A stretch of DNA of 64,000 bases from Escherichia phage I29. The notes beneath the pieces were generated by a model. That model was given only the letters and a program-made list of their open reading frames with translations. It was not told where the DNA came from and did no database searches. The stretch lies in sequence record ON286975, one strand, 5' to 3'. Positions 1 to 60,862 of this stretch are shown in pieces. The position numbers and the translations under genes were made by a program. How positions within the stretch are numbered: the first letter of the stretch is position 1; each line of letters begins with the position of its first letter.

Positions 1-1983
1 TTATTTGATGTTATTCTTTGTATCGATCAGTTCACGGTATTCAATCATAGCAGGAGTGTCCCAATATTTCAAGCCCACATGCTTCAAAAGTGGATATTTC
101 TTTTCCAATCTTGCAATATAGGCCTTCCCGCACTTAACCCGGTTGGCGATTAAGATTTTGGCACGATGATTTAGCTCACTGTGCTTCCACGCGGTGTTAC
201 CTTCCCACTTGTGGAAATGTGGCCGATAATTTCCAAAATCCTGCATGGGGATAATTTTCCCTAATTGTCTATACAGGCTGTCATATGAAGTTTCATTTGC
301 TGCGCGAGTCAGTAAGAATTTCCAGGCGTCCTCTTTCAACAAATGTTCCACATTTTTCTCTGTAACATACTGGCAATCAGGATCAGTCCAAAGCAGACGG
401 GATTCTGATACCAGGTACAGGTCTTCCCCTTCAGGAATCTGGAGTGCCGCACGCACACGGTCATAATTTTGCTGGTAGATGTTACTCAGCTGTCCCAGCC
501 AACAACTTCCACGTTGGATATCACCCTCATAAGGAATGCAGTGCTTAATCTTCTTGAACTCTGCCTTAGTAATACGTTCACGACGGAAGTAACCATCCTT
601 CTCAAGCTTTTTAACCCAATAACCTGGCTCGTAATGAGTTTTTGTTTCACCTTTCTTCGCAGGTCGGCGAGGGAGCTCTGATAACAATTTGACAGTATCT
701 GCAAAGAACGGATGGTGTGCCGCCTCTTTAAACTCTTTCACTAGATCCGTGTTCCGGCAATAGAAAACGTTGCGTCCGGTGATTTCGCTTAAATAGTTAC
801 ACTTATTTCGGTTATATTTGCCATCTCCGTCGTTAAATACAAGGTATACACCTCGTAAGAACTCCGACTTTCCGTAACGAGCATAGCCTATGCGGCCTTT
901 ATTTAAGCCTCCAGCGAAAATTTCACAATCGCCTAAGTCGCCAAGCCCTGTTTCTTCCCATCTGTCCCACATAAAATTCTTACCGAAGATGTGCCCGAAC
1001 ACTCCACTGTTCTTCATCATCTCACGTGCTTCTGAGGATGTTTTTGCTGTCTCCAATTCCGCAACAACTTCTGCCCCACGAAGACGGATACCCTCTTTGA
1101 CAAAAGCCTCCAGACGCTCTTGGAATCCACCATCGTCGTGCCCCTCTATGGTCCATTCGCGCCCAGGGTTAATATTGCAATCCCCGATAGGGATCTCTAC
1201 ACAGATTGCAGGGTAGTCTGTCAATGTTTCCAGAAACTTAGAGCGGTAAGGTTGGTGTCCCATCACCACACGGCTCTCATCAGAGCTGGTATAACCTTTC
1301 AGGATGGTCATTTTCCAACCATCCTTCTCGTAGTGATACTGCGCCTCAACCTTGTCACCTTCCAGCATCTTACTGGTCATAGGGTCGGTAACGGTAAACG
1401 GAAACTTTGCATAGCGTAGGCATGACGCAATAGCAGTGCGATATTTCAGGACATGCTCTTTCTTAACATGGAACTGAACTTTTACCCCGTTGTGCTCTTC
1501 AGTCTTCCGCTCGCGGATCTTGGTAACGTTTGGGATACCCTGATCCAAGAACAATAGATATGTGCTTTCAACACCATTGTGCACACTGATAACATCGAAA
1601 GTGTCCACCATGCTGAACGGAGCCTTTGAACCAACACCTTTATTACCTACCAGAGCGTTGCTGTTGCGCTTGGTTGACTCACCGAGGTTCATGAAAGTGT
1701 TGCGGACCATCTCTTCTGACATGCCCAATCCAACGTCCTGCACAAAGAAGTATGGTTCAAGGTCTGTAGGAGAGTGAATAATGATCGGCACATCACCCCG
1801 TCCAGACTCAACATGAGAGTCCACAGCATTGAAGATTGGTTCACGGCAGCTTGCCAGCACCTTATCTTCGTAAATCCCTTTAATGATTAGCCCAAAAGTC
1901 TCTTTGTTAAGAGAAATTGAGCCCCTGGTGACCTCCATATTTCCGGTTAGCACTGCTTTAGTTTCATTACTGTTTACAATCAT
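1..1983 (-). CDS. GHKL-type (HATPase_c-like) ATPase domain protein, 660 aa
   Basis: Complete ORF; AAGGAG 8 nt upstream of ATG at 1983; N-terminal motifs FFVQDVGLGMSEEMV and GNKGVGSKAPF resemble the Bergerat/GHKL ATP-binding fold; C-terminal ~400 aa unassigned. Confidence 0.55.
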   Translation of the reverse strand: MIVNSNETKAVLTGNMEVTRGSISLNKETFGLIIKGIYEDKVLASCREPIFNAVDSHVESGRGDVPIIIHSPTDLEPYFFVQDVGLGMSEEMVRNTFMNLGESTKRNSNALVGNKGVGSKAPFSMVDTFDVISVHNGVESTYLLFLDQGIPNVTKIRERKTEEHNGVKVQFHVKKEHVLKYRTAIASCLRYAKFPFTVTDPMTSKMLEGDKVEAQYHYEKDGWKMTILKGYTSSDESRVVMGHQPYRSKFLETLTDYPAICVEIPIGDCNINPGREWTIEGHDDGGFQERLEAFVKEGIRLRGAEVVAELETAKTSSEAREMMKNSGVFGHIFGKNFMWDRWEETGLGDLGDCEIFAGGLNKGRIGYARYGKSEFLRGVYLVFNDGDGKYNRNKCNYLSEITGRNVFYCRNTDLVKEFKEAAHHPFFADTVKLLSELPRRPAKKGETKTHYEPGYWVKKLEKDGYFRRERITKAEFKKIKHCIPYEGDIQRGSCWLGQLSNIYQQNYDRVRAALQIPEGEDLYLVSESRLLWTDPDCQYVTEKNVEHLLKEDAWKFLLTRAANETSYDSLYRQLGKIIPMQDFGNYRPHFHKWEGNTAWKHSELNHRAKILIANRVKCGKAYIARLEKKYPLLKHVGLKYWDTPAMIEYRELIDTKNNIK

Positions 1984-2480
1984 TTATTGCGCTCCTTGTA
2001 GTAGATATGGCTCCCGAATTGAGCTGTCCTCTGCATCTTTTTTGCCCATTTCGGTCGTACTTTGGTTGTATGGTAGTGTGTTGCTCCACCTGTTATGTCC
2101 ATAGCCATGTATGCAACATGGTTGTTATTATAGACCTTTAGAAGCATCTTTGCAAGACTTTTAGCGTGATCCCATGAATCTTTTTCTGTCACCTTAAAAG
2201 TTTTGCCGTGGTTTGTCCACGAAAACTGGTTAGGTTGGTAGACAATCTTTCTTATGGTGTCTGGGTATTTGGGGTGAGATTTCCTGTTTAGGGTGGCAAA
2301 CCCAGATGCCAGCATACCCATCGTGCCATCCCCTCTAGCTTCCCTGTAGATATTGCATGCTAGAATGTTTTCCTTAGTATCTGATGGCTTGCAAGTATGG
2401 TATACTTTTTGTTTTGGTGCTGCAACAACAGGCAGCGATAAAAATGCGCTCAAAATAATAGCAAAGATCTTAATTTTCAC
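1980..2480 (-). CDS. secreted SleB/CwlJ-like cell-wall hydrolase
   Basis: GTG start with GGAG SD; N-terminal signal peptide MKIKIFAIILSAFLSLPVVAAP; NIYREARGD...VYQPNQFSW core typical of SleB-family hydrolases; stop overlaps next start (ATGA). Confidence 0.65.
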   Translation of the reverse strand: MKIKIFAIILSAFLSLPVVAAPKQKVYHTCKPSDTKENILACNIYREARGDGTMGMLASGFATLNRKSHPKYPDTIRKIVYQPNQFSWTNHGKTFKVTEKDSWDHAKSLAKMLLKVYNNNHVAYMAMDITGGATHYHTTKVRPKWAKKMQRTAQFGSHIYYKERNK

Positions 2481-2488
2481 AATAACTC

Positions 2489-2518
2489 CAAATAGAAAAT
2501 CCCCGCCGAAGCGGGGGA
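2489..2518 (-). terminator. intrinsic terminator, UUCG-tetraloop hairpin
   Basis: Minus-strand RNA CCCCGC-UUCG-GCGGGG (2501-2516) followed by AUUUUCUAUUU; same hairpin recurs at 28749 and 34014. Confidence 0.6.
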
Positions 2519-2529
2519 GGTCTTAGAAA

Positions 2530-2910
2530 TTAATCGTAGTGTGCCAAAATCTCTCCATCGTTGCAAGTTCCCTCTACAAAGTTATGAAGATTCATGCACT
2601 CATCTTGATAGAAGAATTTACCGCTTTTCAGCCGTAAGCCAAACAACTCCGCATCTCCACGATGGCAAGCCTCTACAAGTTCATAGATTTCATACGGCAA
2701 CTCTCCGTCGTCATGGAAGAACCCAGCCTTATCGTTGACATAGATGAAGAAATAATCACTGCTGTCGCAAGCGTCCAATATTTTAAACCAGATTTCATCT
2801 ACATCTTTTTCTCGGATATCGATCACGCAAGTGGAGCTGCATTCGTACTCCTTCTCCGGCTCCTCGGTCAATACCACCAGGTAGTTTCCCCGCTTACCTA
2901 CTTTAGCCAT
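2530..2910 (-). CDS. hypothetical protein, 126 aa
   Basis: ORF in co-oriented block, ends just upstream of terminator hairpin; no motif recognised. Confidence 0.5.
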   Translation of the reverse strand: MAKVGKRGNYLVVLTEEPEKEYECSSTCVIDIREKDVDEIWFKILDACDSSDYFFIYVNDKAGFFHDDGELPYEIYELVEACHRGDAELFGLRLKSGKFFYQDECMNLHNFVEGTCNDGEILAHYD

Positions 2911-2919
2911 ACAACCCCC

Positions 2920-4104
2920 TTAAGCTTTAGCCAAAATGGCGCTAAACTCTTCACCAAACTCTTTTACAATCTTCATCAGGTTTGGGTATGCTTTGATCAG
3001 CTGAGCAACAATCTTGTCACGCCCTTTGCCGATAAGCAAGGCATTTCCTAAGGCATTAGGTTTCATCATCGCCATAAAGACTGAGAATACAAAATCTCGG
3101 TTCTCGTCCTTGAAGTTTTCCCAAAGGAAATCGAGGAAGTTTGCCACGCAGCTGACAAGATCTTCGTCTGAGATACTTGCATTTTCCATCATATTACGAA
3201 TAGCGATACAACCTTCAGATCCAAGAATCCACAAAATGTCTGGCTGCTTAGGACCTACGTATTCTTTGCAACCACCTGCCATAATCCGACCGATTTCAGG
3301 TAAATTGCGTTTCTTGGTGTGGTATGTCCAGATCTCTACCGCTGCAGTGTGACCAATAGCACCTTGCAGAAGAACACGGGCCATAGCGTCAGAAATAATA
3401 CCGCTGTCAAAATCGTGCAAGATATCAGATGCAGCAACCCAAGATCGCGGTGTGGCAAAAGATGGACAATTAATCTCAGCCATGGCCTCATAATTATCGA
3501 TAGCTGATGGAACTCTTTTCAGATATCCAATTACAGAGGAGTGCACCCCATTAAGGAATGCGTAGTCCTCAATAAACACCTCTGCATTGCTTGTAACCTC
3601 TACAATGATAAAACGGTTAGCCAGAGGGGCTTCGAGCGCCGAAAGAACCGCACCATCTGTAGAACGGTTACCAGCAGCCACAAAAACAGAACCCTTAGGG
3701 AATGCATAGGTACCGCACTTGTGGTCAAGCATAATTTGCATTGCAACCTTTTGCAGGTAGTTATCTGCATGAGTGAGCTCATCCAGAAAGATAATTCCGC
3801 CCCAGTCAGGATCCGCAGGCCAAAATTCTGGAATTGCAAACACTGTACGTGTAGTTCCATCCGCCTCTACAGGGATAGGTAGCCCAGATAAGTCGGCAGG
3901 ATCTTTATCTGACAGTCGCACGTCAACAAGGTTGTCATCTCGCTCACCGAACATATTATCAGCGATCTGCTTCATCACCTGGCTTTTACCCACACCCATT
4001 GGTCCCAAAATTAGGACAGATCGGCTATGACGTTGGGCAAACTGAATAATAGCTGGCAACTCACGGACAGTGATTTGACCACTTTCGAATACGTTTCTTG
4101 ACAT
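2920..4104 (-). CDS. MoxR-like AAA+ ATPase
   Basis: Walker A LILGPMGVGKSQ and Walker B IIFLDELTHAD in a ~390-aa single-AAA protein, typical of MoxR/CbbQ-type ATPases. Confidence 0.8.
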   Translation of the reverse strand: MSRNVFESGQITVRELPAIIQFAQRHSRSVLILGPMGVGKSQVMKQIADNMFGERDDNLVDVRLSDKDPADLSGLPIPVEADGTTRTVFAIPEFWPADPDWGGIIFLDELTHADNYLQKVAMQIMLDHKCGTYAFPKGSVFVAAGNRSTDGAVLSALEAPLANRFIIVEVTSNAEVFIEDYAFLNGVHSSVIGYLKRVPSAIDNYEAMAEINCPSFATPRSWVAASDILHDFDSGIISDAMARVLLQGAIGHTAAVEIWTYHTKKRNLPEIGRIMAGGCKEYVGPKQPDILWILGSEGCIAIRNMMENASISDEDLVSCVANFLDFLWENFKDENRDFVFSVFMAMMKPNALGNALLIGKGRDKIVAQLIKAYPNLMKIVKEFGEEFSAILAKA

Positions 4105-4373
4105 TAGTAAAAGTCCTCTACTTGTGTGTAAGTGTTTTCAAAGTTTTCCAAAACAGATATCACATCGGATCTGTCAATATCATACGTGACTCTCCAGTTG
4201 TACGCAACCCTTTCTGCTGTTGCCTCTTCTGGCGCTAGTCGTCTGCTGGCATAAAAGAGTGTTGGAGTACACTTTCTTGCTTGCCCTCTAACTTTCCCAT
4301 AATAATATCTGTGAATATCTTTGTCAAAATTTAACTCTTTTTCTGCACGAAGTTCATATTGCTGGTATAACAT
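4104..4373 (-). CDS. hypothetical protein, 89 aa
   Basis: ORF whose stop overlaps the MoxR start codon; no motif recognised. Confidence 0.45.
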   Translation of the reverse strand: MLYQQYELRAEKELNFDKDIHRYYYGKVRGQARKCTPTLFYASRRLAPEEATAERVAYNWRVTYDIDRSDVISVLENFENTYTQVEDFY

Positions 4374-4417
4374 CTCTACTACTCCTTAAGCAGCATCCTT
4401 GCCGCCATTCCTGCCCA

Positions 4418-4798
4418 CTAAAATGCAGTCCGAATCCAGACAAGGTTCTTATCTGCCCAATCATAGAGGCAAGTCATTGCACTATTGAATTGCTCACACG
4501 GAGGATAATCTTCTTCCATCTGACGCATAGCAGAGCCTTGTGGGTAAAGCTCCCGTGCTGCAAACCACGCGTCGTAGTCATCAACGGTGTCGAAGTAGTA
4601 TACAACATCCTCCAACTCAGGATCGAACTTTGAACTATCAGGATCCAGTTGTTCAGGGAACTTGGAGCGTAACTTGCCAGCCACAATACTTGCCAACTCG
4701 CTAACATGCTTATTGTCCCACTCCACTAGCTTCCCGTCTTCAGTGATGCGTCCTAACCACTGATCATGAAGGTCAACTGTTGTCTTCCACCGAGCCAT
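4418..4798 (-). CDS. hypothetical protein, 126 aa
   Basis: ORF in tightly packed minus-strand block; acidic, no motif recognised. Confidence 0.5.
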   Translation of the reverse strand: MARWKTTVDLHDQWLGRITEDGKLVEWDNKHVSELASIVAGKLRSKFPEQLDPDSSKFDPELEDVVYYFDTVDDYDAWFAARELYPQGSAMRQMEEDYPPCEQFNSAMTCLYDWADKNLVWIRTAF

Positions 4799-4800
4799 TA

Positions 4801-5058
4801 TCAGTCCACCTCTTCTTCTCGTTGTAGTTCAAGATACCCGTAGGTCTGGACATCTTCAAGGGTGTGGAACTCCCCATCTGCCGCTAATGCACGAACAACT
4901 TGGCACAAAACCTTATGAGGAACTTCATCCAGACCAAGATTCAGTGCAGGGAACACCTTATCTAAGTCAACAAAATAAATGAACTGGAGCTCACCAGCTT
5001 CAAAAGGTGTATCTTCAATAAACATCTTCTCGGCATTAGTCAAGATCTGCACTTTCAT
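4801..5058 (-). CDS. hypothetical protein, 85 aa
   Basis: ORF in tightly packed minus-strand block. Confidence 0.45.
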   Translation of the reverse strand: MKVQILTNAEKMFIEDTPFEAGELQFIYFVDLDKVFPALNLGLDEVPHKVLCQVVRALAADGEFHTLEDVQTYGYLELQREEEVD

Positions 5059-5435
5059 TATTCTACCTCCTCTTCTTTTTCTTCGGCATTAGTTTCATGG
5101 CTACCCCACTCTGGAGTTTCCACCTCGATAGTAAACTCACGCACTACACGGTAATTGCCCATGAAGCGCTCCACTTCGTCAAGGCTTATGGAGAAGCCAT
5201 TGGCAACCAGGTCTGCAGCACCCTCTTCTACCAGGTAGTCCAGATTGGCTTCCAGAGCTTCAGGTTCAAACCCTGTCAATGCAATCAGATAACCTTTCCC
5301 TTCATCAGGGAGGACAATACATCCCAACTGATTTTCTTTAAAAAGGCAGTGACCATCATTGTTGATTGGGTGTTCATTGCAGTAAATAGCTGCACGATAA
5401 GTAACTTTAGACATCGGTAAGGTCTCCTTAGGCAA
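5058..5435 (-). CDS. hypothetical protein, 125 aa
   Basis: ORF in tightly packed minus-strand block, acidic C-terminus. Confidence 0.5.
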   Translation of the reverse strand: MPKETLPMSKVTYRAAIYCNEHPINNDGHCLFKENQLGCIVLPDEGKGYLIALTGFEPEALEANLDYLVEEGAADLVANGFSISLDEVERFMGNYRVVREFTIEVETPEWGSHETNAEEKEEEVE

Positions 5436-5706
5436 TTGTCATTTTACATTCTTGAAATTTTAACACAAGACGGTGATTGTGTCTAGTGTCTAAAAAGATT
5501 TTTTCAACCATCAGGCACACGGTATAACCGTCCATCTTGTTGACAACAAAATCTCCAGGATGAGGGAGGATGTCTCCCGGATTGGGGAAACATAGTCCAC
5601 TCAGAAAGGCATCGTCAGTGGTGGACTTAATAGATTTCCACACACTGTCTGCCTGAACATGTTCACCGACGTAATATACATTACCACATGCCTTCATCAT
5701 AGTCAA
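5428..5706 (-). CDS. hypothetical protein, 92 aa
   Basis: ORF overlapping neighbours by a few nt (operon-like packing). Confidence 0.45.
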   Translation of the reverse strand: MTMMKACGNVYYVGEHVQADSVWKSIKSTTDDAFLSGLCFPNPGDILPHPGDFVVNKMDGYTVCLMVEKIFLDTRHNHRLVLKFQECKMTIA

Positions 5707-6602
5707 ACCCTCGCATAAATTAAACTTGTATCAGTATACTTCTTTAATGGGTAAATATCCTGTCCATAGATGCAATCATTAAACACCTCATCTACCCAAA
5801 GGCTACACTTATATCCCATCATTTCTAAAACACTCATCTCTTCTTCGGTAAACTTATCACCACTCTTGCAAGATGTCAATACCTCATTCTGAACTCTTGC
5901 TACCTCGAATCGGTTATTGGCAATATCGCTATTGGCGATCAAATACTCACCTAGAGGGTGTGCGGCATTAAAGATGCACAGTGGACGGCTGACGTAATAG
6001 TCTCCGGGTGTATAAAAATTGTTGAGGTCTTTCACTAGAACATTCTTATCAGTCACTTCATTTATAACATCATGCATATCGCACATCTTTATATGTTTGA
6101 GGATTCCATCTCCCATCACAAAATAAAAACTTGCTGAGACACTTTCGGCATAGATCTTACTAGATCCGTTGTAGTTGTATTTTACTCGGATGCTAACGGG
6201 GGTTTTTCCTGTCGCGTTAGCCATCATCCAAAGAAATGGCAGCTCATACTTCTCCTCTGAGGAAACAAAAGGTGAGGTAGCCAGAGATCGAAAACCTCCA
6301 GAGAAGTTGAAAGTTACAGAACCGCTCCGGCGGTATGATACCGCGTATTCTACTTTTATATCGACGTACCCATTGGAATAGGTGTGTCCTTCATTATCTA
6401 AATATGTCCACTTATCAGACCCAGATACCAATCTACGCTCAATAACCTTCATCACTACAGGAATTAGCGGGTTGGTACAAACCGCTTTTGAAGTAGCTTT
6501 ATCATCTAAAGCCTCGTAAATTGCAGAAAGGATGTCCCCAGCTGAAAGATTGGTTGTTATGTCCTGTTTCCACCGCGTACTAAAACTGTTAAGATTTGCC
6601 AT
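5703..6602 (-). CDS. hypothetical protein, 299 aa
   Basis: First gene of minus-strand block next to divergent intergenic region; no motif recognised. Confidence 0.5.
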   Translation of the reverse strand: MANLNSFSTRWKQDITTNLSAGDILSAIYEALDDKATSKAVCTNPLIPVVMKVIERRLVSGSDKWTYLDNEGHTYSNGYVDIKVEYAVSYRRSGSVTFNFSGGFRSLATSPFVSSEEKYELPFLWMMANATGKTPVSIRVKYNYNGSSKIYAESVSASFYFVMGDGILKHIKMCDMHDVINEVTDKNVLVKDLNNFYTPGDYYVSRPLCIFNAAHPLGEYLIANSDIANNRFEVARVQNEVLTSCKSGDKFTEEEMSVLEMMGYKCSLWVDEVFNDCIYGQDIYPLKKYTDTSLIYARV

Positions 6603-6684
6603 AAGTAAGTGCTCCTATGTTAGTTTTCTTTCGAATGGGTGCACTATATTGTAGAGTTAGAGTAAAGTCAACACGTTTTTGATG

Positions 6685-6713
6685 TTGACATCTGTTGAGA
6701 CAATTGATACGAT
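6685..6713 (+). promoter_or_regulatory. putative sigma70-type promoter
   Basis: TTGACA (6685-6690), 17-nt spacer, TACGAT (6708-6713) in the divergent region, upstream of ATG 6745. Confidence 0.4.
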
Positions 6714-6744
6714 TTCTTCACTTACAGAGCACGAGAGACGACTC

Positions 6745-7722
6745 ATGAATCTTGAAAAATATTATACACCAGAAGAGTTAGAGCGCTTGCTCAAAAAATA
6801 TAGACGCAAACAGAATAACGCACGGAAACGAGATATAGAGTTCGACCTGTCATGGGAAGAATACCTCCTATTTGGTAAAAAACTTTTAGGAGATGGAGTA
6901 TGCGACTATACCCTTATACCTTTTGACATGCACACAGATGAAAACGGGCTGGGGAATCCTTTCTACCCATCTTTGGAGCGTATAGATGATGAAGGCCCTT
7001 ACGCAATTGACAATTGTTGTGTGGTAGGGTTGAGGTGCAATGCTCTGAAAGACTGTCTGGTAGATAAAAAGACTGCAATCCTGATTAAAGACGAAACTGA
7101 TCGAAAAATTGTCCAGCAGATGATGCTCCACCTGAGCGAAGAGCGTATGGAGAAATTGAAAGGTGATTATACTTTTGAAGATTTCATCTTGCAATATGGA
7201 ACGGAAGAGGATAAACTAGCACTATTTGACGAAGAGGAAGAAGATATGTCACCAATGCAGGACTTTAAAAATTTCATGGCTGATCGTGCAGCCAACAAAC
7301 ACATTTCAGACATCGTGAACGAGACTGTGACAGAAGAAGTTGAAGAACAGAACTCTGAAGAGGAAAAAGAGCCTCAGGAGGTCGAAGAGGGGATTGCAGA
7401 AGAGGTTCCTGCACTGCCTGATGATGTTGAGATTGCTAAGGCTTACACTTTCTATTGTCAAACGTTCTACGATGCAGGTATGAAAGTTGATCTGTCGTTC
7501 AGCCAATTTAAGAGTTCGTATATTCGCAAATGCTGTGCTTTAACTGGTGAACGTCTCGGAGCTGGACTTAAACCACTGTTGGTGACCGACTGGAATAAAG
7601 GTTTCACTAAAGGAAACTTTATGGTAGTATCTCCAATTATGGAGAAAGCTATGACAGATCTTATGAAGACCACCCGCATGACAATGACCGAGTTGGCAGG
7701 TATTTTCAAACACGTTAAATAA
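6745..7722 (+). CDS. protein with two degenerate HNH-like segments and an acidic linker
   Basis: ORF track starts at TTG 6679; ATG 6745 lies downstream of the putative promoter; segments CDY..PSLERID..NCC..CNALK and CALTGERL..DWNKG..KGN flank an E/D-rich linker; no canonical catalytic His seen. Confidence 0.45.
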   Translation: MNLEKYYTPEELERLLKKYRRKQNNARKRDIEFDLSWEEYLLFGKKLLGDGVCDYTLIPFDMHTDENGLGNPFYPSLERIDDEGPYAIDNCCVVGLRCNALKDCLVDKKTAILIKDETDRKIVQQMMLHLSEERMEKLKGDYTFEDFILQYGTEEDKLALFDEEEEDMSPMQDFKNFMADRAANKHISDIVNETVTEEVEEQNSEEEKEPQEVEEGIAEEVPALPDDVEIAKAYTFYCQTFYDAGMKVDLSFSQFKSSYIRKCCALTGERLGAGLKPLLVTDWNKGFTKGNFMVVSPIMEKAMTDLMKTTRMTMTELAGIFKHVK

Positions 7723-7727
7723 TGACA

Positions 7728-7742
7728 GGGGCCAATGGCCCC
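7728..7742 (+). promoter_or_regulatory. GC hairpin GGGGCC-AAU-GGCCCC
   Basis: 6-bp GC stem directly after stop of upstream gene; contains the first in-frame ATG (7735) of the VWA ORF. Confidence 0.4.
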
Positions 7743-7755
7743 TTCTGGAGTTTTA

Positions 7756-9216
7756 ATGGATAGCAGAAGTTCAGAAATCATTGCCTCACAGAAAGATGAT
7801 GCCCTGAGAATGTTGCAGGCTGCACGTATGTATCTCCTTGAAAAGCTGCCGTTTTATGGCACACTACTGTCAGGGTTGCAGTTCGTAGAAAACCACACAT
7901 GGTGCTCCACCATGGCAACCGACCATAAACGCATCTATTACAGTCCTGAGTTCATTATGGGATTGGCTGATGAACGCAAGGCTATTCTTAAGGCTTCTCT
8001 AACTGACGAGCAGTTTGAGATGGCTGAAGTTTTCTATTCCCCAAAATCTGTGAAAGAGGTGGCCTTCCTTCTGTCACATGAGGTGGGGCATATTATCTGT
8101 GATCACCTGGTCCGTGGTAAAAGCTTTGAGCCGGAACTGTTCAATATTGCTTGTGATCACGTTATCAACACAGGCCTTGTGGTTGACTTTAGCAAACCTC
8201 CTTGTGTTTTCTTCCCGAAGGGGAAAAGCACTACGTTCGTGAAAGGTAAGCCTTTTGGCTTCTTAGCCAGCTGCTACTGCGACATGAAGTTTCATGGATG
8301 GATTGCTGAGAACGTTTATGCAGTTCTTGATAAGCAAAGAGATCAGAATAACGGTAAAAGTAAGAGCGGTAAAGGTGAGAACTCTCAAGGTGATAAGCGA
8401 CAAACCGATGATCACATGAGTGGGAATGGTGGCACCAGTGATAATCTTGGAAAGGCTATGGGGTATGATCAGCCACAACCTGTAATCAGCCAATCTGATA
8501 AAGATCAGGCCATGCAGGACTCTGGCGATATGCTGGAGGCAGCAATGCAAGCGTCCGGAGGCCGTTGCCCTGAGGCGGTGCGTGAGTTTGTCAAGAACAG
8601 AGGTAAGCCTGTAATCAACTATATAGACATCATTAAGCAACGCATGTTGTCTAAAAGAAAGGCCGAACTGACCTACAGAAAACCTGGTCGCCGATCTGGT
8701 TCTTTGACCAGCACAATGCGAAAAGTTGGGGCTATAAACAAGAACCAGCACGTTATTGTTCCCGGTCGTAATCCTGAAAACACTATAGATATTGTTGTAG
8801 CTTTAGACGTTTCTGGCTCGATCTCTCAAAGAACTTTAAAGAAAATGTTCAATGAAATCACCGGACTGTGCAATCTGTATAAAGAGTTTAAGGTTACGAT
8901 GTTCTGTTGGTCAACCGAGGTTGGAGAGGTCAAAGTATACACTCGCGGCAACATAGACGAGATGATCAACTATGAGGTCCACTCAACATGGGGCACAACA
9001 GCTGCTTGCGTGTTCGAGTATCTGGATGCCAATATACCGAATGCAAAAGATGTCATCGTCCTGACCGACCTATACTTTGAGCATAACTTTGAACAAAAGG
9101 CTGTTGACAACAAGTGGAAAAAGTACGATACTTTATGGGTTCTCACCGAGGGGTATAATAAAAATTATATCCCGAGCTTTGGGAAAACTGTGGAATTAAT
9201 CGAGTACGCCAAGTAA
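7756..9216 (+). CDS. VWA domain protein with N-terminal metallopeptidase-like segment
   Basis: MIDAS-type motif ALDVSGSIS in C-terminal half; N-terminal HEVGH...CDH segment; ATG 7756 preceded by GGAG, preferred over hairpin-buried ATG 7735. Confidence 0.7.
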   Translation: MDSRSSEIIASQKDDALRMLQAARMYLLEKLPFYGTLLSGLQFVENHTWCSTMATDHKRIYYSPEFIMGLADERKAILKASLTDEQFEMAEVFYSPKSVKEVAFLLSHEVGHIICDHLVRGKSFEPELFNIACDHVINTGLVVDFSKPPCVFFPKGKSTTFVKGKPFGFLASCYCDMKFHGWIAENVYAVLDKQRDQNNGKSKSGKGENSQGDKRQTDDHMSGNGGTSDNLGKAMGYDQPQPVISQSDKDQAMQDSGDMLEAAMQASGGRCPEAVREFVKNRGKPVINYIDIIKQRMLSKRKAELTYRKPGRRSGSLTSTMRKVGAINKNQHVIVPGRNPENTIDIVVALDVSGSISQRTLKKMFNEITGLCNLYKEFKVTMFCWSTEVGEVKVYTRGNIDEMINYEVHSTWGTTAACVFEYLDANIPNAKDVIVLTDLYFEHNFEQKAVDNKWKKYDTLWVLTEGYNKNYIPSFGKTVELIEYAK

Positions 9217-57867: not shown

Positions 57868-59415
57868 TTAGATAAAACGCTTGAACATAGAAGGTGATGA
57901 GATTGATGGAATCACACAAGGAAGTGCTACCTCCTCTTTCTCTAGGAAATTAATCGCAGAAGCTACACAGTCGGCCCAGTCGTCTTTTCTGTTAAATGTT
58001 GATCTTTCCCCGTTGAATTTTTCAAGTTCAGTCAGAAATGCTTCCAGAGTATCAGGATGGAAACTGGATTTTACAATCCTCACCATTCCTTGTTGGGCAA
58101 GATTGGCAAAAGGTGAGAACCTTGTCAGTTTAGACTTGTTGGAAGGCATTGGGTCTTCTTCAACCCTGAACCCTTCGGCAAGCAAGGATCTGGAGGAGGT
58201 TAAGAACTCACTCTTACCTGCCTGCCCTGGGTCCACAGAGAAGACGATTATGCAATCATCACCATCGAACTGCGCCTGTTTCCTGATGATCACATCTCGT
58301 TCACCAGCCTTTTTACAGAACTTGCCTTCCAGACCTGTGGAATACCTCCCGTCATCCACGTTCTCAGGACAATAATCACCGGACAGGTAATAAAAGCCGT
58401 CGCTATCTTTACTTACCTTAATACTGGCAGTAAAGTCAGGAAATTTATTACCGGAAGTTCTCTCGGTTCCTGCCTTATCCCATGCCCTGCAAGATACTGA
58501 CCCAAGAGGTACTCTATCGGCATCACGAAGGAAAGATCTTTGAAAATAGTTTGCACCCTCAGGCTTTGCAAACCAGTTACCATGGAGAAGCTGAGCTTTT
58601 TCCAGCTCTGGTAGACCTTCGAGGAAAGCAAGGTATTCTGGGTTGTCTCTCAAACAGACAGGATTATCGAATATTGTTGCGCCTATGAACGAGAATGACA
58701 ACGGTCTTGGCTTGATCTCTACGCCAAGTCCGTTAACCGTGGTGTATTTCTCTATCAACTCTTCTTTAGAGTCTCCCCAGATAAATTCACCGTCGCGTCG
58801 GATAAAATATCTTTTCTTACCGCATTTCTCCGGATCTGGATACCCTTCATCGTCCAACCACCATCTAACCAGTTTGGCAAGCATGTGTTCTGAATCGGGG
58901 TTACAGCTGATAACCATTCTTGATGGATACTTTGACTGAGATCGCAGACGAGACATCAGATAGTCTATCTGCTCCCATTCGAACTGCGTGCCCTCATCGA
59001 AGCAAACCATGGTGTACTCAAGCCCCTGATGGTTAAGCTTATCTTGTACATACTCCATATGGCAGTATTTTACAACAGCTCCCTTTTTGCTTCTATCCCA
59101 CTTACCAGTGTTCGGATCAAACCGTGGAAAAATGAACTTATGATCCTTCTCTCTGAACTTTGGCTTAATGTTTTCAGGCAGATCACTGTAAATAGCTACT
59201 GCTTTAGGCCATAGTCCACCCTCACCTTCCAACTGTGGGGTTGTTCTTCGGAACATAACCACAGAGCTGTGGGGGTCATCAATAATTTTAAGTGGCATCA
59301 ACTGCAAGAGGAACGACTTGCCAGACCCTGCGGCACCGCCGATTACCAAAATATCTGCATCGTTTTCTAGGATCATCTTCTGCTTTTCAGAACACGGTCC
59401 GTAAATCTTAGACAT
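57868..59415 (-). CDS. terminase large subunit
   Basis: Walker A ILVIGGAAGSGKS near N-terminus; 515 aa; upstream of portal. Confidence 0.8.
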   Translation of the reverse strand: MSKIYGPCSEKQKMILENDADILVIGGAAGSGKSFLLQLMPLKIIDDPHSSVVMFRRTTPQLEGEGGLWPKAVAIYSDLPENIKPKFREKDHKFIFPRFDPNTGKWDRSKKGAVVKYCHMEYVQDKLNHQGLEYTMVCFDEGTQFEWEQIDYLMSRLRSQSKYPSRMVISCNPDSEHMLAKLVRWWLDDEGYPDPEKCGKKRYFIRRDGEFIWGDSKEELIEKYTTVNGLGVEIKPRPLSFSFIGATIFDNPVCLRDNPEYLAFLEGLPELEKAQLLHGNWFAKPEGANYFQRSFLRDADRVPLGSVSCRAWDKAGTERTSGNKFPDFTASIKVSKDSDGFYYLSGDYCPENVDDGRYSTGLEGKFCKKAGERDVIIRKQAQFDGDDCIIVFSVDPGQAGKSEFLTSSRSLLAEGFRVEEDPMPSNKSKLTRFSPFANLAQQGMVRIVKSSFHPDTLEAFLTELEKFNGERSTFNRKDDWADCVASAINFLEKEEVALPCVIPSISSPSMFKRFI

Positions 59416-59702
59416 TAACCTCTCTCCTTTGGAAACAGTGTTCTAATATAGTCTTGCAAAATGATCAATTTAGCTCTATCATTGCTACAAGACAGATTAT
59501 TATCCCTCATAATGCCAGAATTCACTGCATCTGGCGCACCTTTCTTCAAAGGCATAGCTTTAGCAGGTGGTTTCATGGCACCTTCCGGGGGTTTAACAAT
59601 CAACCTTCCTACATCCGGAGGGTCAATCTTGTATTCTCTCTCAACGCTGGTTGCACACCCACATAATAACAAGCACACAATAAACAGTGTAGCAACTCTC
59701 AT
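59415..59702 (-). CDS. o-spanin (outer-membrane lipoprotein, Rz1-like)
   Basis: Signal peptide ending in lipobox-like LLCGC; Pro-rich mature part; C-terminal ...ERG; start overlaps i-spanin stop. Confidence 0.6.
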   Translation of the reverse strand: MRVATLFIVCLLLCGCATSVEREYKIDPPDVGRLIVKPPEGAMKPPAKAMPLKKGAPDAVNSGIMRDNNLSCSNDRAKLIILQDYIRTLFPKERG

Positions 59703-60097
59703 CTACCCTCCTGATTAATACTCTCATTATAAATATCTATAAGCTGATCAGGGAGTGTTGACTTCTTACCCTCAGGTGACTGGAGGTAAATAATCTGCTT
59801 TTCTTTACCTGCCTTCTCAGCCATATTTAATTTATCCTGTAGATCAGAAAGGGATTTTTCAAGGTTTTTAACCTCCTCTGCGTGGCCCATTTTAATTTTG
59901 TCGGCCTGCTTTTGTTGCTGATCAAGGATCCGTTCCCACTTTAACTCTGTTGCTGACACACCTTCTTGGTAGGCATCATTAAGCTTAGAGTTAAACCAAT
60001 ACACGGCCCCAAGATAAGCTGTACCTATCGCAGCTGCAAAAACTAAACCTTTTATGATCCATCTATACCTGCTCAGCCATGTTAAAACTGAAATCAT
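59699..60097 (-). CDS. i-spanin (Rz-like)
   Basis: N-terminal transmembrane helix IIKGLVFAAAIGTAYLGAVYWF followed by coiled-coil-rich periplasmic domain. Confidence 0.6.
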   Translation of the reverse strand: MISVLTWLSRYRWIIKGLVFAAAIGTAYLGAVYWFNSKLNDAYQEGVSATELKWERILDQQQKQADKIKMGHAEEVKNLEKSLSDLQDKLNMAEKAGKEKQIIYLQSPEGKKSTLPDQLIDIYNESINQEGR

Positions 60098-60763: not shown

Positions 60764-60862
60764 GGTGCTAGGTGATGGAATCGAACCACCTATGTATTCA
60801 ACGACTACCTCGTCTATTTTCAGGATTAAAAATCCTCGCCCTTGCCAAAGGGCTTACCTAGC
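60764..60862 (-). tRNA. atypical tRNA-like gene (possible anticodon UUU, not resolved)
   Basis: Good acceptor stem, D arm and T arm, but 30-nt insert between anticodon arm and T arm; CCA not encoded. Confidence 0.4.

Follow-up and report, generated by a model that had tools for sequence, protein, structure and literature searches.

rIIA and a predicted exported SleB-type cell wall hydrolase at the start of the rV5-like genome of Escherichia phage I29

Introduction

The DNA considered here is the first 64 kb of the genome of Escherichia phage I29 (sequence record ON286975; 64,000 nucleotides, termed the window hereafter), and in particular its first 2,518 positions, where a terminator-like hairpin, the gene of a SleB-type cell wall hydrolase (gp2) and the gene of a GHKL-type ATPase (rIIA) follow one another, all on the minus strand (Table 1). 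Close relatives of both proteins have been described. The ATPase belongs with rIIA of bacteriophage T4, and GHL/MORC-type GHKL ATPases such as Hsp90/TRAP1, GyrB/ParE, MutL, MORC2/3 and Topo VI-B are the close known systems for its ATP-binding part. The catalytic domain of gp2 is shared with Bacillus SleB, a lytic transglycosylase, and small phage hydrolases of the same kind are represented by CB7_83, CR3_087, PAK_P3 gp151 and the enzymes of phAPEC8/phi92-like and T5-like phages. A further point of comparison is provided by the exported endolysins, namely the signal-peptide endolysin Lys44 of fOg44 and, from P1 and phage 21, those of the signal-anchor-release (SAR) type, which reach the wall via Sec without a holin and are required for lysis.

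Taken as a whole, the locus very probably combines rIIA, a subunit of the rII anti-Rex module, with an exported accessory enzyme, gp2, which is not an endolysin, in the early/middle gene block of an rV5-like phage. The genome is of the rV5 type (Vequintavirus): of about 120 phage records that match, the 20 listed share 97.7-99.7% identity with the first 4.2 kb of the window, and nearly all of these 20 bear names of Vequintavirus (rV5-like) coliphages. The DNA of A6-1 and MaxTheCat is 99.7% identical over the stretch and is annotated there as cell wall hydrolase, rIIA and rIIB. At coordinates identical to those of Table 1, the published rV5 gene table gives rIIA as gene 1, a cell wall hydrolase (Hydrolase_2) as gene 2, a conserved hypothetical protein as gene 3 and a MoxR ATPase as gene 4.

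By convention, rV5-like genomes are opened at rIIA (PMC4591320), which is why the window starts with the rIIA stop codon (positions 1..3). In the differently permuted genomes of MaxTheCat and A6-1, rIIB starts 10 bp downstream of rIIA and is followed by a DNA helicase gene, and the order of rIIA and rIIB is the same in the Mydovirus AV124. The initial annotation had described the hydrolase and the 660-residue protein as a pair; since rIIB follows rIIA in near-identical genomes, this pair is an artefact of the window edge, the partner of rIIA lying just outside, and the stretch is the visible half of a hydrolase-rIIA-rIIB-helicase series. In an rV5-like myovirus of the Vequintavirus murica type, the region would form the start of the conserved early/middle block of leftward genes, in which gp3, the hairpin, gp2 and rIIA would be followed, just past the window start, by rIIB and the replication helicase.

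Table 1. Position, strand and supporting basis of the features discussed (positions are those of the window).
Feature	Coordinates	Strand	Basis
rIIA, 660 aa, GHKL-type ATPase subunit of the rII (rIIA/rIIB) anti-Rex module	1..1983	-	PHROG 612, T4 homology, rV5 gene 1
rIIA Bergerat-fold (GHKL) ATP-binding domain, residues ~18-190	1414..1932	-	motifs I-III
Second domain of rIIA (residues ~195-285), resembling the transducer domain of GHL/MORC ATPases	1129..1401	-	structure alignment, boundaries inferred from model
rIIA-specific C-terminal region, residues 286-660	4..1128	-	confidently modelled, no solved structural relative
ATGA, overlap of gp2 stop and rIIA start	1980..1983	-	read from sequence
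AAGGAG Shine-Dalgarno sequence of rIIA, inside gp2, 8 nt upstream of ATG		-	read from sequence
gp2, SleB-type cell wall hydrolase, 166 aa, Hydrolase_2	1980..2480	-	open reading frame; PF07486; SleB structures; rV5 gene 2
gp2 Hydrolase_2 catalytic domain, residues 51-161	1998..2330	-	Pfam; SleB alignment; conserved residues
Codon of catalytic-type Glu47, just upstream of the gp2 domain	2340..2342	-	SleB motif alignment
gp2 signal peptide, residues 1-20, probable cleavage VVA/A	2421..2480	-	hydropathy; homologues
GGAG Shine-Dalgarno sequence, 5 nt 5' of the gp2 GTG start (2480)	2486..2489	-	read from sequence
Terminator-like hairpin, stem-loop 2501..2516 (CCCCGC-UUCG-GCGGGG) and interrupted U tract	2490..2516	-	equals rV5 t003
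gp3, conserved hypothetical protein, 126 aa	2530..2910	-	open reading frame; PHROG 12370; T5.083 homologue per rV5 table
MoxR-type AAA ATPase	2920..4104	-	two genes upstream of hydrolase; orthologue of bas54_0063
o-spanin, lipobox LCGC	59415..59702	-	adjoins large terminase
i-spanin	59699..60097	-	adjoins large terminase

The rIIA Protein

The 660-residue protein matches the RIIA profile PHROG 612 over its full length (E 1.3e-124, residues 1-658 against 1-724 of 725), is 100% identical to rIIA of phage isim (Vequintavirus murica) and has homologues in 2,642 phage records. As in T4 rIIA, the GHKL domain is N-terminal and co-linear from Met1 (28% identity over residues 1-190, E 3e-21), and rIIB lies downstream in the near-identical genomes; unlike the 725-residue T4 protein, it is 660 residues long, and for the two C-terminal regions only the predicted structures still show the relationship. 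For the locus, NCBIfam yielded no rIIA model and only sub-threshold matches to Hsp90, sacsin and SleB.

The GHKL ATP-binding domain recognized in the initial annotation is upheld by a profile match (Pfam HATPase_c_3, residues 50-147, E 1.8e-8, 34.9 bits against a cut-off of 25) and by three motifs that are invariant in 30 rIIA homologues, namely motif I with E48, N52 and D55 (ExxxNxxD), motif II with D83, G85 and G87 (DxGxG) and motif III with G113, G116 and G118 (GxxGxG). Also invariant are S103-T104-K105, Y246 and R275-E276, and the last three residues, Y246, R275 and E276, fall in the second domain. Structure comparison aligns 245-300 residues of rIIA to two-domain ATPase modules; a Bergerat fold is thereby joined to a transducer-type second domain, the combination that marks the GHL/MORC branch. 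With the predicted structure as query, the top viral matches are RIIA proteins, aligned over the full length, those of T4-like phages such as KVP40 and 44RR2.8t at E 1e-32. A sequence search found no solved rIIA structure; it gave only weak hits of the GHKL region to TRAP1 and one to Topo III-beta that is due to chance. The C-terminal region of 400 residues first described as unassigned can therefore be divided, its beginning being the second GHL domain and the rest aligning structurally with RIIA proteins; residues 286-660 have no solved relative.

On this architecture, rIIA would be a cytoplasmic, membrane-associated ATPase made of a GHKL domain, a transducer-like domain and an rIIA-specific C-terminal region. 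The conservation of the motifs predicts ATP binding and hydrolysis, and turnover in the GHKL domain would drive the protective function. Regarding this function, knock-down of RIIA or RIIB by CRISPRi-ART in five divergent phages had no effect on Rex-free Escherichia coli and lowered plating on lambda RexAB hosts (PMC11879866). One of the five, EdH4, is Vequintavirus murica, the same species as isim, and the anti-Rex role has therefore been shown in a conspecific phage; the part in host conflict which the initial annotation had offered among several options is in this way borne out for rIIA. Together with rIIB, rIIA would stop the abortive infection system RexAB of lambda from killing the infected cell and would probably act against related membrane-depolarizing defences as well, being dispensable on hosts without such systems. 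In the congener Bas54, according to a preprint that is the source of all Bas54 data given here (bioRxiv 10.1101/2025.11.20.689424), transposon insertions were found at 90 of the 101 TA sites of rIIA and 56 of the 59 of rIIB, from which it follows that both genes are non-essential on K-12. Bas54 is taken to be the same phage as MaxBurger because the gene coordinates match, and rIIA of MaxBurger is 98.5% identical to that of the window.

The Hydrolase gp2

The only Pfam domain found in gp2 is Hydrolase_2 (PF07486, residues 51-161, E 2e-19). The protein aligns with the catalytic domains of Bacillus SleB (4F55/4FET, E 2.5e-6), E47 standing opposite the Glu of YGESRGE, and the Glu of the YxE(A/S)RG motif, or "YGE(S/A)RGE", is thus kept. 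The lytic transglycosylase chemistry of SleB is probable for gp2 too. Unlike SleB, gp2 has no N-terminal peptidoglycan-binding domain, and it scores only 48.3 bits against the cut-off of 236.5 of the SleB equivalog TIGR02869, over profile positions 83-201 only, which lie in its C-terminal half. To judge by these comparisons, gp2 is SleB-like in its catalytic domain and is no SleB orthologue. Its substrate cannot be spore cortex, as the host of the phage is a non-sporulating Gram-negative bacterium and the protein has a Sec signal.

The predicted signal peptide, rightly noticed from the start, resembles the classical kind. The N-terminus MKIKIFAIILSAFLSLPVVAAPK has a basic n-region, a hydrophobic core of 15 residues and a V-x-A cleavage motif; it can be written as MKIK followed by IFAIILSAFLSLPVV and AA, with means of 2.1-2.6 on the Kyte-Doolittle scale over 11 residues and a core devoid of Gly. 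Cleavage after A20 would satisfy the -3/-1 rule without placing Pro at +1.

A word-indexed search for homologues gave only 10 proteins, and tblastn against the phage collection was used instead. With this search, homologues were found in at least 1,336 of 50,697 phage records, ranging over Vequintavirinae, phi92/phAPEC8-like, T5-like and PAK_P3-like phages as well as phages of Vibrio and Xanthomonas. When 12 homologues drawn from at least five phage lineages were compared, Y45, E47, R66, Q85-F86-S87, D128, T130, G132, W145 and Y161 were invariant in all of them, and all 12 had an N-terminal hydrophobic export signal, accompanied in three by a lipobox-like TASC. Two cysteines of gp2, C30 and C42, flank the start of the catalytic domain and are kept in the homologues from Vequintavirinae and phi92-like phages, one cysteine at a shifted position being kept in the other lineages; a periplasmic disulfide between C30 and C42 is possible.

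The other phage hydrolases of this kind resemble gp2 in being small, single-domain proteins with an N-terminal export signal, encoded among early/replication genes and apart from the lysis genes, usually in addition to a separate endolysin. This also holds for the four other lineages that were checked, all virulent phages of Gram-negative hosts, in which a separate endolysin was present where looked at. They differ in that the overlap with the rIIA start is confined to Vequintavirus and in that some have a lipobox or a longer N-terminal anchor. In the study of CB7, the SleB-like protein was reported to possess a signal peptide, to occur in all genera of Vequintavirinae and to be toxic upon expression in E. 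coli (PMC7344957).

The best reading of these features is that gp2 is a Sec-exported, holin-independent accessory muralytic enzyme, probably a lytic transglycosylase. It would reach the periplasm by means of its cleavable Sec signal peptide, without any holin, and most likely cleave there the glycan strands of peptidoglycan using Glu47. A more specific proposal is that the role of exported Hydrolase_2 proteins may not be lysis but remodelling of the sacculus, which could block superinfection, blunt an envelope defence or prime lysis, the dose being limited by the hairpin and, in Vequintavirus, coordinated with rII through translational coupling; put in such detail, the proposal is unlikely.

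gp2 and the Lysis Genes

In rV5, a lysin of the Phage_lysozyme type (gp89) is encoded at 71.6 kb, and LysECP26, a relative 98% identical to gp89 that has been obtained in purified form, lyses Gram-negative cells (PMC9728275). The lysozyme gene of A6-1 lies at the equivalent of about 70.4 kb, that is about 6 kb past the end of the 64-kb window, and tblastn with the A6-1 endolysin found no lysozyme within the window (best E 0.97). The spanin genes adjoin the large terminase gene, as noted for rV5, PVP-SE1 and CB7 (PMC7344957), and the remark that the hydrolase is far from them and not part of a lysis cassette was correct. In Bas54, analysed by HIDEN-SEQ, the hydrolase gene (bas54_0065) is non-essential, with insertions at 32 of its 36 TA sites and a mean count of 916, and the mean insertion count is 0 for the endolysin gene (bas54_0202) and for both spanin genes. 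In the host comparison, which was between K-12 and the isolate CFE311, the hydrolase gene showed no conditional requirement (log2 fold change -0.88, adjusted p = 1). Because the lysozyme gene takes no insertions and that of gp2 is freely disrupted, gp2 cannot replace the lysozyme. Lysis would depend on the lambda-like lysozyme and the spanins; the lambda-like lysozyme is the true endolysin and gp2 is not. The published Bas54 data thus make the hydrolase neither the only endolysin, an eventuality for which the initial annotation had allowed, nor required for lysis.

These data bear directly on the idea that gp2 is nonetheless the endolysin of the phage, or a second enzyme wholly redundant with it, which would leave the cytoplasm early and become active at the time of lysis in the manner of signal-peptide or SAR endolysins. 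The name speaks for it, gp2 matching PHROG 938 ("endolysin") and many database records calling its homologues so, as do findings on Certrevirus, where a part in lysis has been attributed to the CR3 homologue, a holin candidate with two transmembrane domains overlaps the gene, and expression of the CB7 protein is toxic (PMC7344957). Besides the Bas54 insertions, what argues against it is the place of gp2 in an early/replication block about 57 kb from the spanin genes (59.4-60.1 kb) and its own export signal, as an endolysin of the usual kind is encoded with holin and spanins and stays in the cytoplasm until the holin fires. Nor does the signal look like that of a SAR endolysin. A SAR domain is an uncleaved, weakly hydrophobic N-terminal transmembrane domain rich in Gly, Ala and Ser, and the core of the gp2 signal is strongly hydrophobic and followed by a V-x-A site, unlike such Gly/Ala-rich domains; judged by hydropathy rather than by a dedicated predictor, the N-terminus looks like a cleavable signal. 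Set beside Lys44 and the enzymes of P1 and phage 21, gp2 would likewise be exported by Sec, but it is dispensable and another enzyme is required. An endolysin role of gp2 is therefore very unlikely.

Relationship of gp2 to rIIA and to the Virion

The overlap between the hydrolase stop and the start of the large protein is present as first described, in the form of ATGA. Overlap and gene order are kept in Vequintavirus; in Mydovirus the order is kept, the two genes being separated by a 170-bp gap. The ATGA overlap would couple the translation of gp2 and rIIA, in Vequintavirus only. It was proposed initially that hydrolase and ATPase are functionally coupled, and in its strongest form this would make them a dedicated two-gene system, in which the GHKL ATPase would control the hydrolase or act in concert with it during entry, in the timing of lysis or in conflict with the host. 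Co-translation implied by the overlap, a gene order common to two genera of Vequintavirinae and the action of both proteins at or near the envelope can be cited in its favour. However, the conserved partner of rIIA is rIIB, immediately downstream, and hydrolase and rIIA are found independently in other phage groups. In the phi92-like outra, the T5-like Spc35 and PAK_P3, the hydrolase gene lies among unrelated early/replication genes with no rIIA within 4-5 kb, the Certrevirus CB7 has the hydrolase and lacks rIIA/B (PMC7344957), and in T4, where rIIA has rIIA.1 and gp60 as neighbours, no hydrolase of this kind lies close by. Moreover, the Mydovirus genes do not overlap, gp2 and rIIA would occupy different compartments (periplasm and cytoplasm), and neither gene is conditionally required between K-12 and CFE311 in the accessible Bas54 data. 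This independent occurrence leaves functional coupling unsupported, and a dedicated two-gene system is highly improbable; the linkage is best explained by a shared place in the early operon rather than a shared mechanism.

A conserved unit of gp3 and the hydrolase was considered and rejected, as in AV124, outra, Spc35 and PAK_P3 the hydrolase is preceded by genes that are not of the length of gp3 and in which inspection, without a formal alignment, revealed no evident similarity to it.

Muralytic entry enzymes are common in phages and an entry role had been suggested at first, but that gp2 is a virion-associated lysin piercing the cell wall at DNA injection is scarcely credible, since a Sec signal peptide would take it out of the cytoplasm, where virions assemble, and since it is absent from the table of rV5 virion proteins identified by multidimensional protein identification technology (PMC3606486, Table S5). 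In the same table rIIA (locus 1, 660 aa) appears with two spectra/peptides and 3.2% coverage, as compared with 2,030 spectra for the capsid protein; such a trace, on which the paper does not comment, is probably carry-over of a membrane-associated protein.

The Hairpin Upstream of gp2

The UUCG-loop hairpin reported directly 5' of the hydrolase gene is real and had already been listed, on the minus strand, as terminator t003 of rV5 (-16.0 kcal/mol; rV5 Table S4). Its perfect 6-bp GC stem and UUCG loop are followed by AUUUUCUAUUU downstream of the stem, and within a context of 71 nt the folding energy is -20.9 kcal/mol (z = -3.05 relative to dinucleotide shuffles). A GC-rich stem-loop with a U tract at the end of a gene is what defines a Rho-independent terminator; here the gp3 stop codon is 13 nt away and the U tract is not continuous. 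rV5 and A6-1 carry the same hairpin sequence.

That the terminator insulates the hydrolase and rIIA genes, as first stated, is an overstatement. Only 20 nt separate the hairpin from the hydrolase start, which leaves no room for a promoter, and promoter-like matches in positions 1..8000 are at the level of chance (17 against 15.1 expected). For the latter reason a TTGCAA-N17-TATAAT site inside the region (2155..2127) is evidence of nothing. It follows from the short gap without a promoter that hydrolase and rIIA are transcribed through the hairpin or from upstream. With no promoter between it and gp2, the hairpin would most likely be an attenuator or leaky terminator, or else a stabilizer of RNA ends, and a putative role of either kind is plausible. 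It could also keep down the amount made of a hydrolase for which toxicity on overexpression has been reported.

In the Mydovirus AV124, a different GC hairpin with a T tract occupies the same position, abutting the Shine-Dalgarno sequence, and hairpins are also found 5' of the SleB-like gene in outra, where a promoter-like site follows, and in PAK_P3. In all, GC-rich hairpins of unrelated sequence lie upstream of the hydrolase homologues of three lineages other than that of the window (L004 4958..5001, L005 4908..5001, L007 3825..3878). The recurrence of upstream hairpins may reflect conservation of position, or no more than the abundance of terminators in these phages.

Neighbouring Genes and Other Features of the Window

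The MoxR-type ATPase gene is arguably the more interesting gene of the neighbourhood. Its Bas54 orthologue, bas54_0063, is described in the 2025 preprint as an anti-defence gene needed against "DS-28", a predicted system of E. coli CFE311 (log2 fold change -7.23). A further "cell wall hydrolase protein" of Bas54, bas54_0030, is encoded in the lateral tail-fibre block and is conditionally required in CFE311 together with neighbouring fibre genes (Data S7 of the same preprint). At the other end of the window, the large terminase is encoded on the minus strand by one intact open reading frame of 515 residues (57868..59415), which in rV5 is in three pieces around an HNH homing endonuclease. The tRNA cluster includes a 99-nt tRNA-like gene (60764..60862, minus strand), given by ARAGORN as "tRNA-???" with a four-base anticodon (atcc) and scored by the Rfam tRNA model at 35.5 bits against a cut-off of 29; six tRNAs are annotated in rV5 and seven in Murica.

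Significance of the Locus

Several points weigh against the assignment of the locus to rIIA and an accessory exported hydrolase. With BLASTP, similarity to T4 rIIA is seen only over the first ~190 residues. No report of ATP hydrolysis by any rIIA was found in the literature consulted, and the anti-Rex role was demonstrated in EdH4, a conspecific genome other than that of the window. The data on essentiality were obtained on laboratory hosts and are taken from a preprint. As to gp2, its export, signal cleavage and bond specificity are deduced from sequence only, and the exact cleavage site is uncertain because P22 follows the AA motif. As to the hairpin, its U tract is broken, and terminator-like matches in the region are not more frequent than in shuffled sequences (9 against 6.3 +/- 2.3 expected).

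The content of the locus is already known from the rV5 annotation of 2006/2013, the functional work on rII of 2025 and the genome-wide essentiality data of 2025. It carries little weight as a discovery, given that the 2013 rV5 annotation includes genes and hairpin, that the anti-Rex role of the rII module was tested in EdH4, a phage of the same species, and that, by the genome-wide transposon data, neither gene is essential. Its meaning lies elsewhere. Modelled as a GHL/MORC-like ATPase of two domains, followed by a C-terminal region lacking any solved relative, rIIA is a reasonable structural target in a puzzle that is 70 years old. The label "endolysin", which many records of exported Hydrolase_2 proteins carry after PHROG 938, is a mislabel at least in Vequintavirus, going by the Bas54 essentiality data, and this matters to the mining of endolysins as antibacterials.

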